A stretch of DNA of 24,593 nt, from assembly GCA_037381445.1 (NCBI GenBank), contig JARRQT010000120.1:1-24593 (forward strand), in the 5' to 3' direction. Origin of the DNA: Calditrichia bacterium. Its GTDB lineage: Bacteria > Calditrichota > Calditrichia > RBG-13-44-9. Position 1 is the stretch's first letter. Each line of letters opens with the position of its first letter. Made by a program: the position numbers. Positions 13,901 through 18,460 of the stretch are shown here, in pieces.

Positions 13901-16900
13901 GAATTGTCCGAGTTGCTTAAATCATACTTTATTTTATAACTGTCATTCTCCTTGACCAGGTCAATTTGCAGGCTGTTTTCGGCATTATTGGATGTGCCGC
14001 TGGTGTCAAGTGTTGTTTCGATAACCGGCTTTTTTAAAATAACATCCAGGCCGGAAACGCGCTCCAGTTGGTCCTGCAAGACCTCGATCAGGCCCAGCAA
14101 GCGGGTCTGGGTGGTCATGTCCTGTTCATTGGGAGTTTTATAATCAATGCTCAACCGGGTGGGTTTCGGAAGGGAAATCTCTTCAATGGACTTCACCGGT
14201 TCCGGTGCCTTCTGAATTTTAATGAACAGGAATGTCAAAACGGCGAAAATAACAACGAAAATAGAAAGATTGGTCCAGATGGCTTTAGGTGAAATTCCGG
14301 GTTTTTCGCGAATGTCGCTGAGTTCTACGGCATTGAGGTCCGATAACAAGACTTTTGCGGAAGTGTATCTGGATTTCGGTTCCTTTTCCAGACAGCGCAA
14401 AATGATGTCGCCCAGGATTGCCGGAAGTTTTTTATTTAATTGATTCGGGGACCTGGGGATGTCATGCATAATCGCATAAATCTGCGCCGACTGATGGCTT
14501 TTTTCGAATGGGGATATTCCGGTAAACAGTCTGTAAAGAATATTTCCAAGGGCATAGATATCGGTCTGTTCCGTATTCGGGGAACCGATAATCTTCTCCG
14601 GCGCTATGTAGGGAAAGGTGCCTGAGATCGACAGGGTGTCAGCCGGCGTCGAAATGAGGCCGGCCAGCCCAAAATCCAGCAGCTTGGGTTTCCCCTGCGG
14701 TGTGATGATGATATTGCTGGGTTTCAGGTCCCCATGAACCAGATTATACTGATGGGCGTCCGCAACAATTTCTATTATCTGACGGGCCAATCTGAGGGCA
14801 AACGGGATATCTATCCTGTGGGTTTTCAGGAAGTGCTCCAGGGAATCCCCTTCCACATATTCCATGACAATGCAGGTACCGGAGGGGTTTTCCAGAACAT
14901 CATAGATTGTTACGATTCCGGGGTGCTGCAACTGGCTGGCAAGCCGTGCTTCTTTCAGGATTTTCTCGCGGCTGAGGTTCTCATCGGTCAAAAATTTGAG
15001 CGCTACCTTGCGGCCCAGCCGTTTGTCCTCCGCAAGATAGACAATGCCCATGCCTCCCCGGCCCAGTTCGCGGAGAATCTGGAAATGTTCAATGGTTTTA
15101 CCTGACATCAAAATCCGGAATCACAGTTAAAAAAATCCATTATTTGTATACCGCTCCGCTCATATACCCGACAACCTTGGTTTTTTCCCCGAGCGGGACA
15201 TCGCCGGAGGTAGCGTATTTAATCACTTTACTTTTGGAATATCCCAGTTTGGAGCAGGCATACATCATTGCCGCAATCGGCCCGTAACCGCAGGCCTCGA
15301 TCTGCCGGGCCTCGCAGTCTTCCACCAGCTTCTGATACTTGAAAGAAGCAAAAAGATCGAGCAGCTCGTGGTCCAGTTTGTACGCCGTATTGTAGGAGTG
15401 ATAGTGGGAGAGGTCCGAAGAAGCCACGATGAGGAAATTTTTGCCCTTCAGTACATCGGACAGGGCCTCGCCCAGATCTTTCACCGCGTACCAGTTTTGA
15501 TCCGCAACAACAATAGGAACCAGCCGGAAATTTCCCAATACCCGCTGCAGAAACGGCAATTGAACCTCCAGGGAATGCTCTCCCCGGCCGGAGAAGCTGA
15601 TGTGATGCCCCTTTTCGGAAATCTGCACGTGCGGTGAAATATCGGCAAGCTGCCGGACAATATCCTGCGCGACCGGGATTTTGCCCAGCGGCGTGCTGTA
15701 GTATTCCCCCCCGAAAACAGAAGCGCCGCGGAATGGCTCAAAATGCGAGGGCGCGATAACAACCACCACATCATAATTCCTGCCCTGGATCTGACGGTAA
15801 GACCAGGCGGCCACCGGCCCTGAATAGACATAACCGGCATGAGGTGAGACCAATCCCGCGATTTCTCCCTCAACCACGACCCCGGCTTTTGACAAATACT
15901 CATCGATCGTCTGATTCAGGATTTTGGGATCATCCGGATAAAACATCCCCGCAACAGCGGGTTCCCTGACCGGGGCGGGATTTTGGGCATTCAGCCACCC
16001 GCTCAAAAATAGTATCACCCAGATCACCTCCTTCATTGTTTTCATTATTTAATTCCCCCTGATTAAAGCAAGAAACACCATAAACGATGAATATCCAATT
16101 ACAAAATATAATATTCCCGAAAAATCAGCAAATAAATATATTCTTTTTCAGGTCCAGATACCGGGAATAGAAGCACCGCAGTCCGGGCATTTTCCGTTTT
16201 CAAGCCGGTTCTCCATAATTAAGAAACCCTTGCGGCGAATGAGCGCCTTCTGACAATTGGGACAATAGGTGTTCTCTCCGGCGTGCCCGGGGACGTTTCC
16301 CACGTAAACATAGTGCAGACCTTCACCCAGCGCAATGTCCCGCGCCCTCTCCAGGGTCTTGAGCGGGGTGGGAGGCAGGTTCTGCATGCGGTACTGGGGA
16401 TAAAAGCGGGTAAAATGAACGGGCATATCCTTTCCCAGATTCCGGGCGATCCAGACGGAGAGCTGTTTCAGTTCCCGGTCCGAATCGTTCAGAGTTGGCA
16501 CCATCAGGTAAACGATTTCCGTCCAGATGCCCAATTTGCGCAGCAGGACCAGGGTATCCAAAACCGGTTTCAACTCGCCGGCGACGATTTCCCGGTAGTA
16601 TTTTTCGGTGAATGCTTTCAAATCTATTTTGACGGCAGTGAGAACTTTGGCCAGTTCCCGCATGGGCGCTTCCTGAATGTAGCCGTTGCTGATCATCACG
16701 CTGCGGATGTTCCGGTCATTCCCCTCGCGGGCGATATCATGCATATACTCGCTGAAAACCACCGGTTCGGAATAGGTACAGGCGATGACCGGTATGCGGT
16801 CGGTGCGGGCCATCTCTGCAATTTCTTTGGGGGAGAGGTCAAAATTGTCCACCTGTTCCGGACGGGTCTGGGAAATCTGCCAGTTCTGACAAAACTTGCA

Positions 16901-18460
16901 GTCCACATTGCATCCCACGGTTGCCAGGGAGAAAGCCGCCGCACCGGGAAGAAAATGAAAAAGCGGCTTCTTCTCGATGGGATCGATATGATAGGTGCAG
17001 GGATGGGAATAGACCAGGCTGTAATAGACGCCATCCCAATTCTCGCGGACGCCGCAATAGCCTCTTTCCCGGTCATCCACCACGCACTCCCGGGGACAAA
17101 GTTTGCATTTAACTTTTTTATAGGGCAGCTTCTCGTACCAGCGGGCTTCAAAGGCGCGGTCAACGCCCGGGGAAGCCGCGGCAAATAAATCCGGAGCGGG
17201 CAGCAGGGAGGCCAGCAGCGATCCGCCGCTCACTGCCGCGCAATTTTTGATGAATAAACGGCGCTCCGCATCATACGTTTTATTCATGATTGCCTAAACC
17301 CCCGATTTGACCCACTCGATTTCATCCAGTTGGCTCTGGCCGATTCCCTTTTGCCCCGCGGTGAGAATATACTCGGGTTTCCGGCCGGCCTTTTCCAAGG
17401 GCGGGAATCCCGTCTCCGCACGCTTTCGCTCGATGATTTCCCAGCCGACCCTGTCCAGCGCCACACCATCCAGCGCGAGCAGCAGCCCGTTCATAGGCCA
17501 GACCCATTGGGGCTTGAAGGGAGGCCCGCCCTCGTGCTGGGCATCGAGCGCATCACAAATAATCAAACGACTCTTTCGGCGGATAATGTCCATCTCATAC
17601 AAATCCGCCACAAAGGGATTGCCGGCACTGGCGTGATACTTGTTGGGATTGTGAATGGCGCCGAAAAAGTTTTTCATGGACAGGGTGATGCCCACGATGC
17701 CGTGATCCTTCAGCACCGGGATGTTGATGACCGAGTCGCAGAATTGGGTGAGGGTGCGGCTCACCAGGCTGGCCACCGAGCCGTTCATATACAGCTTCCG
17801 GTCGAACCCGGCGGTGTCATTTCCGAAGCAGCGCACCTTGTTCTTATTCGTGCGGTTGAGGGAAAAACCGGCATTTTCCAGGTCCCTGTCCAGGCGGTCC
17901 CAGATAATGATGCTGCCGGGGGGGATTCCCGCGCGCCGCAGTTTTTCGATGACCGCTTCAACCAGCATGGTGTGGCTGGCGCCGTGTTTTCCGGAGAGGC
18001 AGTTCACTTTGATCCCCACCGTATGATGGGCGGGGAAGAGGTTCTTCCACACCGTCCGGGGGTTCTCATTCCCGTAGAGCTGGCTGATGCCTTCGTCCAG
18101 CATTCTACTGATGACGGCGGCATTAAAAGAACCGCTCTTCCGGACAGCGGGGTTGACGATTTCAACCACCCGGGAGTTTACGGGAGCGGATATGAGGCTG
18201 AAAACATTTTTATCCGGAAAGGGGAGGAAAGAAAAACCTGCGCCGATTTTCAGGCTGTTTAGAATAAAGTCCCGCCTGTTCATGATTGACCCCGCAATTC
18301 TGAATAAATATAGGAAAGGAAAGACCGGATTTCAACAGGGATAACAATTGCGGGGCGGGCGGCGGGTGCATAAGTGCAATAATATTCTTCGATTAAAAAA
18401 AGTCTTGATTTTCACATGGGGCAAATTTATATTTGTTGCGCAAAAAATGAGCTGGCACCT

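Follow-up and report, generated by a model that had tools for sequence, protein, structure and literature searches.

An AmmeMemoRadiSam system predicted to work outside the cytoplasm, although such systems are assumed to be intracellular, is encoded in the genome of a Calditrichia bacterium. In the boldest reading considered here, to which a probability of about 45% is given, it forms a periplasmic radical SAM machine. This machine would consist of an Fe-S enzyme (AmrS) exported by Tat, a dedicated MFS protein that exports SAM and carries an outward SAM-binding cap, and partner proteins shared between compartments by dual starts. The genes, motifs, co-occurrence, clade and second start sites behind this explanation were observed, while the folds, topology and docking were modelled. 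The genome-wide survey's note had already proposed a periplasmic radical SAM system of three exported genes. Its reading, still a prediction, is supported in part by the leaders, the Tat genes, the clade and the predicted outward partner domain, but it mislabelled DUF362 and treated it as core. Its three genes stand as listed, yet AMMECR1 and the membrane partner were missed.

An operon for DUF362, AmrS and Memo

The window (the whole stretch of 24,593 nucleotides that was analysed) contains the three-gene operon where the survey had placed it, with all genes on the minus strand. The Tat, Tat and Sec leaders ascribed to DUF362, AmrS and Memo can all be seen in the window sequence. The features are as follows.

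18307-18335, minus strand: Sigma-70-like site upstream of DUF362 (2 such sites found against 2.9 expected)
17294-18283, minus strand: DUF362 gene, 329 aa (PF04015, 69 bits)
18185-18283, minus strand: predicted Tat signal of DUF362, about residues 1-33, RR at 3-4
16148-17287, minus strand: AmrS radical SAM gene, 379 aa (TIGR04337, 375.8 bits, cut-off 220)
17180-17287, minus strand: predicted Tat signal of AmrS, about residues 1-36, RR at 9-10
16889-16912, minus strand: radical SAM cluster motif CxxxCxxC in AmrS (C126, C130, C133)
15140-16045, minus strand: Memo/AmrB gene, 301 aa (TIGR04336, 275 bits, cut-off 26)
15986-16045, minus strand: predicted Sec signal of Memo, about residues 1-20, hydrophobicity 2.38

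AmrS begins 6 nt past the DUF362 stop. A scan for promoters and terminators returned nothing beyond chance. The downstream kinase (13375-15111) was rejected as a member of the system, as it is not a recurring neighbour.

The radical SAM enzyme and its leader

AmrS matches the radical SAM domain PF04055 (76 bits, cut-off 29.5), and its CxxxCxxC motif is invariant in 57/57 exported-type sequences. The enzyme also has an N-terminal four-Cys motif (C61, C64, C68, C78) and a C-terminal CxxC...CxxC (C342, C345, C367, C370). Exported and leaderless enzymes share 56 positions at which each group is conserved to 90% or more, all 11 motif cysteines among them.

The leader reads ERRLFIK followed by a hydrophobic stretch. 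The survey had reported a twin-arginine motif in 110 of the 120 best AmrS homologues, with some misses due to cut starts. The count, made with an RR-x-hydrophobic-hydrophobic pattern over the best 120, was reproduced. Eight of the 10 misses are cut starts, and the other two carry RR, one being mis-parsed and one reading RREFC. Within the phylum, RR is present in 30/30 top-scoring AmrS loci and in 0/21 of the lower-scoring copies fetched, 4 of which offer no anchor for the pattern. When a tree was built after removal of the leaders, the 102 leader-bearing cores formed one clade (SH-aLRT 98), and this clade spans more than 10 phyla. The genome encodes TatC and TatA/B. With its twin-arginine motif, its hydrophobic stretch and this machinery in the genome, AmrS fits a predicted Tat substrate.

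Memo and AMMECR1

The Memo of the window stands alone, without an AMMECR1 fusion, and keeps the family motifs PHAG, EHSxE, DLSH and CG. The claim that Memo genes beside the exported AmrS carry leaders holds for all 48 related-locus Memo genes with an N-terminus, and these signals are of the Sec or lipoprotein type (48/48). A companion claim, that Memo beside AMMECR1 has no leader, is right for stand-alone Memo in this family and wrong for fusions. Among the related loci with an N-terminus, 43 have a Memo-AMMECR1 fusion beside AmrS, all 43 with a leader; these exported fusions keep RGCxG in 42/43 and DxRF in 43/43.

The three AmmeMemoRadiSam genes are not clustered in this genome. AMMECR1 lies on contig C32, unlinked to AmrS and Memo, and has a leader. 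It is thus predicted from its sequence to be exported as well, which the survey had overlooked. The gene scores 114 against 99 bits, summed, and the stretch that would hold RGCxG and DxRF is missing from the assembly. The contigs from runs X1 and X2 are 112-116 bases longer at this gap. A decayed gene was ruled out, as the gap sits in the assembly. The survey had also described a leaderless set beside the exported one. A leaderless AmrS is indeed present (C193), but no leaderless Memo was found in this assembly and the only AMMECR1 has a leader. Taken together, export of AmrS, Memo, DUF362 and AMMECR1 is considered very likely.

One gene that probably serves two compartments

A strong Shine-Dalgarno second start has been found behind the signal of Memo in 14/15 genomes that have a cytoplasmic AmrS and a single Memo gene. 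It is present in 0/16 genomes with two Memo genes, in 6/242 of the background and in 1/4 genomes with a single AmrS. In this genome's family the equivalent second start is on AMMECR1, and none was found behind the signal peptide of the window Memo. The Shine-Dalgarno of this genome's AMMECR1 is modest, at -5.7 kcal/mol, where 14% of the background reaches -5.5. Genome G076 has no clear upstream start. It is likely that the dual starts are used and give exported and cytoplasmic forms, and a single partner protein probably serves both compartments. A partner shared in this way argues against RNA modification.

An accessory DUF362 protein

The DUF362 leader reads NRRDFIL, and RR is found in 27/27 phylum orthologues with a visible N-terminus. 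The survey had called it an Fe-S protein. This label does not hold, since 37 aligned sequences have no invariant Cys and there is no ferredoxin tail. The same alignment has conserved Lys/His and no conserved Cys, and a role as an Fe-S electron donor was ruled out on this ground. The sole domain match is PF04015. A sequence search of solved structures returned nothing credible, and a search of the ESM Atlas returned DUF362 clusters only. Five LarA-type chains match the structural model of the protein (Z 14-16), and the next match drops to Z 5. The LarA match (Z 15.7, rmsd 3.0, 203 aligned) covers the N-terminal domain only. A nickel-pincer enzyme was rejected, as LarC, the one gene of the cofactor pathway that was searched for, is present in only 7/40 genomes with the system. 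Outside this phylum DUF362 is present in 8/36 genomes and missing from 28/36. It is an accessory subunit and not a core one. As the reductant of the exported AmrS, DUF362 is a weak candidate; the search for a reductant for this enzyme found none.

A probable membrane partner for AmrS

A protein encoded on contig C76, unlinked to the operon, is predicted to have a 14-helix MFS fold with a SAM-fold domain. Its model (pLDDT 90.6) matches MFS transporters (VMAT2, Z 26.6, rmsd 3.8, 334 aligned; SotB, Z 25.2) and spermidine synthase (Z 25.1, rmsd 3.0, 275 aligned). Its two six-helix halves are homologous (alignment probability 97%, E 4e-11), and Lys/Arg counts place the SAM-fold domain outside.

The membrane protein adjoins AmrS in 34/81 loci. 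In this phylum it was found in 36/40 exported-type against 1/20 leaderless-only genomes, and in a second phylum sample in 39/41 against 4/70. In these as in the other genome counts, kin are not independent. Against the link, it occurs without an exported-type AmrS in 2/78 and 4/111 genomes. One genome (G074) has the membrane protein and a leadered AMMECR1, and no AmrS was found in it. The predicted complex of AmrS with the membrane protein scores an ipSAE of 0.68, against 0.00 for the best control. The score mark used is reached by 116/157 solved pairs and by 2/215 mismatched pairs. Contacts agree to at least 91%, with a partner pLDDT of at least 82. AmrS residues specific to the exported clade show no enrichment at the modelled interface (4/23, p=0.27). 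That the membrane protein is a partner of AmrS is held with high confidence.

The function of this protein is less settled. It keeps the two acidic nucleoside-binding positions (E/D in 27/30 at 322, D/E in 30/30 at 352). Compared with the genome's own SpeE, it has the GGGDG Asp in 0/30 and the catalytic Asp in 2/30, residues whose roles in spermidine synthases we take as given. Spermidine synthase was rejected as its function, as these Asp are lost and an ordinary SpeE is encoded on C389. The protein is the best available candidate for a SAM supplier, and the chances that it supplies SAM to AmrS are put at even.

Proposed mechanism

Under the preferred reading, AmrS would acquire its [4Fe-4S] cluster while still in the cytoplasm and cross the membrane as a folded protein through Tat. 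Memo and AMMECR1, fused in most lineages and separate here, would leave by Sec. The active-site face of AmrS would dock on the outward SAM-fold domain of the membrane protein, which most likely moves SAM out, passes it to AmrS and possibly returns 5'-deoxyadenosine and methionine. AmrS would generate the 5'-deoxyadenosyl radical. The conserved AMMECR1 cysteine would accept an intermediate, and the Memo metal site would complete the reaction. The chemistry would be that of the cytoplasmic copy, and the substrate would be a small molecule or protein residue of both compartments, not RNA. Where a single Memo or AMMECR1 gene has to serve two AmrS enzymes, two in-frame starts would give both forms. 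A complete extracytoplasmic trio with membrane partner and dual starts is somewhat favoured, and the order of the chemistry and the substrate class are tentative.

To our knowledge, radical SAM enzymes are generally cytoplasmic; they are taken to be so on account of their need for SAM and electrons and their oxygen-sensitive cluster. If true, an exported clade with a candidate SAM exporter would change this cytoplasmic-only rule, and the chemistry of AMMECR1 and Memo, conserved as far as humans, would prove independent of RNA. One polypeptide for both compartments would imply that the substrate also occurs in both, and the search would narrow to candidates other than RNA. The role of AMMECR1 and of Memo, two proteins conserved in humans, becomes testable, and a second copy that sits in the periplasm and can be deleted lends itself to study better than a cytoplasmic one.

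Alternative explanations

The system could be exported and the membrane protein could instead be an enzyme that transfers a methyl or aminocarboxypropyl group from SAM, fed by its own MFS channel and acting on the AmrS product or an envelope substrate, or an importer of the product. This is unlikely but has some points in its favour. The class I SAM fold is intact and its glycine loop is kept (G299 in 30/30). Loss of the GGGDG Asp accompanies methyltransferase activity in relatives of spermidine synthase. Loop 408-413, at which AmrS is predicted to dock, aligns with the region past the fifth strand of the genome's SpeE, which we take to be the acceptor pocket. Against a transferase, the catalytic Asp is nearly always lost, and cytoplasmic AmmeMemoRadiSam sets manage without the membrane protein (present in 1/20 genomes), so that a supply job fits better than a pathway step.

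A more doubtful option is that the exported trio retains the predicted nucleic-acid chemistry and applies it to periplasmic nucleosides or bases, free or scavenged, while the MFS protein imports the product. The predicted role in nucleic-acid modification that the survey had mentioned is in print, as PMC2034487 predicts RNA-base modification for AMMECR1. The MFS matches include nucleoside transporters (Z 20-23), which tie with many others, and Memo weakly matches LigB ring-opening dioxygenases. However, no nucleoside or nucleic-acid gene recurs among the neighbours in 81 loci, and the source of SAM is left unexplained.

It is improbable that nothing is exported, with the twin-arginine leader left over from the past or kept as a membrane anchor and the system at work on the inner membrane face. 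This would suit seven Eisenbacteria-type AmrS leaders that are hydrophobic without RR, the need for SAM and low-potential electrons, both held to be cytoplasmic, and the fact that no exported radical SAM enzyme was found in the literature searched. However, RR is constant in 110/120 leaders while the remainder varies, the partners carry Sec or lipoprotein signals throughout, and the partner domain is predicted to face outward. CxxCH follows the Tat leader of AmrS in five genomes, and dual starts are sensible only if the long form exits the cytoplasm.

AmrS is equally improbable as an activase that installs a radical or cofactor on an SxENY loop of the membrane protein or on DUF362: its next-best NCBIfam matches are glycyl-radical activases, with PFL-activating enzymes its nearest relatives, loop 408-413 (SxENY) is predicted at invariant AmrS residues and DUF362 has LarA-like Lys/His with LarC missing in 33/40 genomes, but the loop is variable and has no conserved glycine, DUF362 is missing from most lineages, and the cytoplasmic AmrS has an identical active site with neither partner.

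Comparison with known systems

The survey had found no paper on a periplasmic radical SAM enzyme. This agrees with the literature searched here, in which no paper was found on a periplasmic, secreted or exported radical SAM enzyme, on a SAM exporter, or on a fused MFS/spermidine synthase in the periplasm. PMC7159879 cites Burroughs et al. (2019) as describing Memo-AMMECR1 systems, and that work may mention secreted versions. Six papers carry the name AmmeMemoRadiSam, as the survey had stated.

All three AmmeMemoRadiSam families (TIGR04335, AmrA/AMMECR1; TIGR04336, AmrB/Memo; TIGR04337, AmrS) are present in this genome, with AmrS and Memo above their cut-offs and the catalytic motifs kept. The system differs from the known one in the export signals on all parts, the separate AmrS clade, the dedicated MFS/SAM-fold partner, the accessory DUF362 and the dual-start genes that also serve the cytoplasmic copy.

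The membrane protein shares membrane helices and a spermidine-synthase fold with fused MFS/spermidine synthases and membrane aminopropyltransferases (NF037959, PRK03612). One homologue just passes the NF037959 cut-off (40.5 bits, with 40 required) and stays below that of PRK03612 (158, with 472 required). Unlike these proteins, the membrane protein has a full 6+6 MFS with the soluble domain between the halves and predicted to lie outside, has lost the residues for aminopropyl transfer, and is associated with AmrS. The DUF362 model has the fold of the LarA lactate racemase superfamily, although in its N-terminal domain only and behind a Tat leader. Members of this superfamily are nickel-pincer enzymes, and Pfam clan CL0471 includes DUF362 (PMC11770544). 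Dual starts also have a parallel in the T6SS immunity protein Tli, for which a preprint (bioRxiv 10.1101/2023.03.28.534661) describes periplasmic and cytosolic forms made from in-frame starts that lie behind the signal sequence and have a ribosome-binding site of their own. Unlike that of Tli, the second start described here tracks the number of gene copies in different phyla and would be of use to two paralogous enzymes.

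The operon and its export signals

Three genes on the minus strand make up the system:
15140-16045, minus strand, Memo/AmrB (TIGR04336, 275 bits, cut-off 26)
16148-17287, minus strand, the radical SAM enzyme AmrS (TIGR04337, 376 bits, cut-off 220)
17294-18283, minus strand, DUF362 protein (PF04015, 69 bits)

The gap from the DUF362 stop to AmrS is 6 nt, and the closest relatives bear Calditrichota names. The genome-wide survey's note had assigned Tat signals to AmrS and DUF362 and a Sec signal to Memo, and the sequences bear out these predicted leaders: AmrS has ERRLFIK followed by a hydrophobic stretch, the DUF362 leader motif is NRRDFIL, and Memo has an N-terminal Sec-type leader. 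TatC and TatA/B are encoded in the genome; tatC lies at C1:1-4000 in a minus-strand gene run whose members presumably include Rnf-like membrane electron-transfer subunits. Pattern matching likewise returned the twin-arginine motif in 110 of the 120 best AmrS homologues. Eight of the ten misses are the cut starts that had been supposed, and the other two do have the RR pair.

Two groups of AmrS

AmrS splits into two groups across 78 genomes of the phylum: 40 carry a copy with at least 49% identity, most of them with a second copy at 35-47%. RR was found in 30/30 top loci fetched and in 0/21 fetched copies of the lower group, four of which offer no anchor for the pattern. In a quick-method tree of 125 catalytic cores, with leaders removed beforehand, a single branch (SH-aLRT 98) held the 102 leader-bearing or cut rows, with all 23 leaderless ones outside it; the sample is biased to the window's relatives and omits rows lacking an anchor or shorter than 300 residues. 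Within the 102, seven rows from Eisenbacteria-type genomes carry an AmrS leader that is hydrophobic and lacks RR. These leaders (L047-L049, L064, L066, L067, L070) contain at most one arginine, a lipoprotein Memo-AMMECR1 adjoins, and lipid A/LPS genes (kdtA, lpxK, heptosyltransferase-like) surround the loci. Fifty-six positions are conserved to at least 90% in both groups, CxxxCxxC and the cysteine motifs near the N- and C-termini among them, and the exported AmrS is therefore not a dead enzyme.

AmrS-like genes also occur as tandem pairs in some Desulfobacterota-type genomes (L068, L092, L287, G120:C11, G161:C24). At L259 (G164), an exported-type frame begins at the first cysteine motif, as though the N-terminal part sat on a separate frame.

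Probable export of Memo and AMMECR1

Among 80 related loci and the window, 50 Memo genes were found, two of them cut; the 48 whose N-terminus is present all begin with a hydrophobic leader, including 43/43 Memo-AMMECR1 fusions. Judging by these leaders, AMMECR1 is exported as well, not Memo alone. The fusions retain RGCxG (42/43) and DxRF (43/43). Second, stand-alone Memo genes of the same genomes have no leader (15 scored of 16). The earlier claim that Memo beside AMMECR1 is leaderless holds only for such stand-alone pairs and fails for fusions.

A leaderless set had also been reported beside the exported one. A leaderless AmrS is present on contig C193, but no leaderless Memo was found in this 92% complete assembly, and the sole AMMECR1, on C32, bears a leader. 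Its motif stretch is absent from the assembly. At that point a contig from run X1, which may be the source of the assembly, has 112 extra bases and one from X2, another study, has 116; the gap is therefore a fault of the assembly. About 110 bases are dropped at a poly-A run (L006:1768). The C193 AmrS has a similar gap at its 5' end (L001, about 1490-1540), where an apparently similar stretch is missing at a poly-T run. A divergent Memo-like lipoprotein (L005:1315-2430 on C20, 80 bits to TIGR04336) has no AmrS linked to it, and many other genomes contain a comparable type of 420 aa.

Given these gaps, further broken-looking genes may be artefacts. Other features of the window are:
4669-7507, within it a GAF/sigma-54 regulator, middle part seemingly missing
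6048-7070 and 6944-7507, Ser/Thr kinase split over two frames
10891-10965, tRNA-Asp
13375-15111, second kinase-TPR gene with an abrupt end
18454-19630, tRNA-Phe, then HipA-like kinase pieces split by a stop (18641-19150, 19181-19630)
The damaged regulator and kinase genes (4669-7507, 13375-15111) possibly reflect the same fault; the HipA-like pieces may be a small insertion at tRNA-Phe.

Dual starts

In many exported Memo genes a further in-frame ATG directly follows the signal peptide. Thirty-six genomes were sorted by copy number alone, and Shine-Dalgarno pairing was then scored. Where a second AmrS accompanies one canonical Memo, the ATG is present in 15/15, with pairing at -8.2 kcal/mol or better in 14/15. 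A strong second start was found in 0/16 genomes in which both AmrS and Memo have a second copy (in five of these an ATG lies nearby, pairing at -5.5 or weaker), in 1/4 single-AmrS genomes and at 6/242 background internal ATGs. The pattern had been seen in most loci before grouping; the previously unseen genomes, five with one canonical Memo and one with a second Memo, conform (6/6). The single-Memo group covers at least five lineages.

In the genome's own family, the exported Memo lacks an AMMECR1 domain. Ten genomes (G000, G064-66, G068, G069, G074-77) have a single AMMECR1 with a leader followed by a Shine-Dalgarno sequence and ATG. This arrangement is absent from G063, which has an exported fusion, and from G067 and G071, for which no AmrS of the exported type turned up; G072 and G073 were cut and G070 gave no match. 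Stand-alone AMMECR1 of other families is leaderless in 23 of 24, the other being unclear. The window genome's own upstream start pairs at -7.0 and its inner start at -5.7, a modest value taken alone. Tli is a precedent for such dual forms, according to bioRxiv 10.1101/2023.03.28.534661.

DUF362 and a possible electron route

DUF362 occurs in 36/40 exported-type and 0/38 other genomes of the phylum, and directly upstream of AmrS in 28/30 loci. Outside the phylum it occurs in 8/36 genomes, several times with no leader of its own, and it is accessory. It had been described as an Fe-S protein; no conserved cysteine was found. Its model (pLDDT 95.4) is predicted to match the LarA N-terminal domain (Z 14-16), in agreement with the common clan given in PMC11770544. 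LarC is present in only 7/40 genomes.

Leaderless DUF362 genes stand immediately upstream of Tat-AmrS at L015, L016, L018, L029, L031 and L032, where piggy-back export is possible. DUF362 genes number six in the window's genome, those at L008, L009, L010, L012 and L013 among them, and five of the six bear twin-arginine leaders. The L009 gene comes after one for a membrane polyferredoxin, possibly an electron conduit; those of L012 and L013 each adjoin the same kind of secreted protein.

In five genomes CxxCH separates the Tat leader from the AmrS core (L157, L242, L243, L261, L269); the three of them that belong to the phylum have no DUF362 orthologue. CxxCH is a haem-c-type motif, matured outside the cytoplasm. 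It hints at an electron route, in few genomes. Set beside these motifs and the leaders, it is improbable that the system is not exported.

A probable membrane partner and the proposed mechanism

In 34/81 loci the neighbourhood of AmrS encodes a protein of some 760 residues that contains a spermidine-synthase domain; in the window's genome this protein is unlinked, on C76. It was found in 36/40 exported-type against 1/20 leaderless-only genomes of the phylum, and in 39/41 exported-type against 4 of the other 70 genomes in a second phylum (111 genomes), counts that include kin and thus not independent genomes. Typing in the second phylum was by score, with G149 added for its RR; leaders read in 24 of the 40 top genomes gave 22 with RR, RK or a long leader and two undeterminable, and 13/13 lower-scoring copies read were leaderless. 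G074 carries the partner without an AmrS match.

The AlphaFold model (pLDDT 90.6) is predicted to resemble the MFS proteins VMAT2 (Z 26.6, rmsd 3.8, 334 aligned) and SotB (Z 25.2), and spermidine synthase (Z 25.1, rmsd 3.0, 275 aligned). Its six-helix halves are homologous to each other (97%, E 4e-11), and alternating Lys/Arg counts (30 sequences) place the soluble domain, between helices 7 and 8, outside. Compared with the genome's own SpeE, both acidic positions that we take to bind the nucleoside are kept, and what are presumably the GGGDG Asp and the catalytic Asp occur in 0/30 and 2/30. That the protein is a transferase or importer is rather unlikely, the SAM fold speaking for a transferase and the mostly missing catalytic Asp against it. 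Periplasmic nucleoside chemistry by the trio is less likely still. Both can overlap with the mechanism proposed below.

The AmrS core and the SAM-fold domain are predicted to form a complex (score 0.68; 0.68, 0.69, 0.66; best control 0.00), at a mark reached by 116/157 solved and 2/215 mismatched pairs and only roughly valid for the alignments used. Contacts agree at 91% or more, with partner pLDDT of at least 82, and loop 408-413 would face invariant AmrS residues. Exported-clade-specific AmrS residues were not enriched at this interface (4/23, p=0.27), which counts against docking. To our knowledge no structure of such a complex has been solved.

In the proposed mechanism, AmrS would receive its cluster inside the cell before Tat export, and Sec would carry Memo and AMMECR1 out. 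AmrS would dock on the MFS protein's outward domain and be supplied with SAM by that protein; a radical intermediate would pass to the AMMECR1 cysteine and then to the Memo metal site. That AmrS is instead a protein activase is improbable.

Relation to known systems

Hand-over to the AMMECR1 cysteine was proposed for the family, and an RNA-base role predicted, in PMC2034487. The active sites match and a single partner gene can supply the two copies, so the substrate is expected in both compartments, which argues against the RNA-base role. Memo-AMMECR1 systems are credited to Burroughs et al. 2019 in PMC7159879; PMC13515050 has nothing specific to add. Among the papers listed, six carry the system's name, with one mention each. 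No exported radical SAM enzyme or SAM exporter was found in the literature searched, most subscription papers lying outside it. The exported form is a genuine and ancient variant of a system that is known though still lacking an explanation, and it is predicted to perform radical SAM chemistry outside the cytoplasm.
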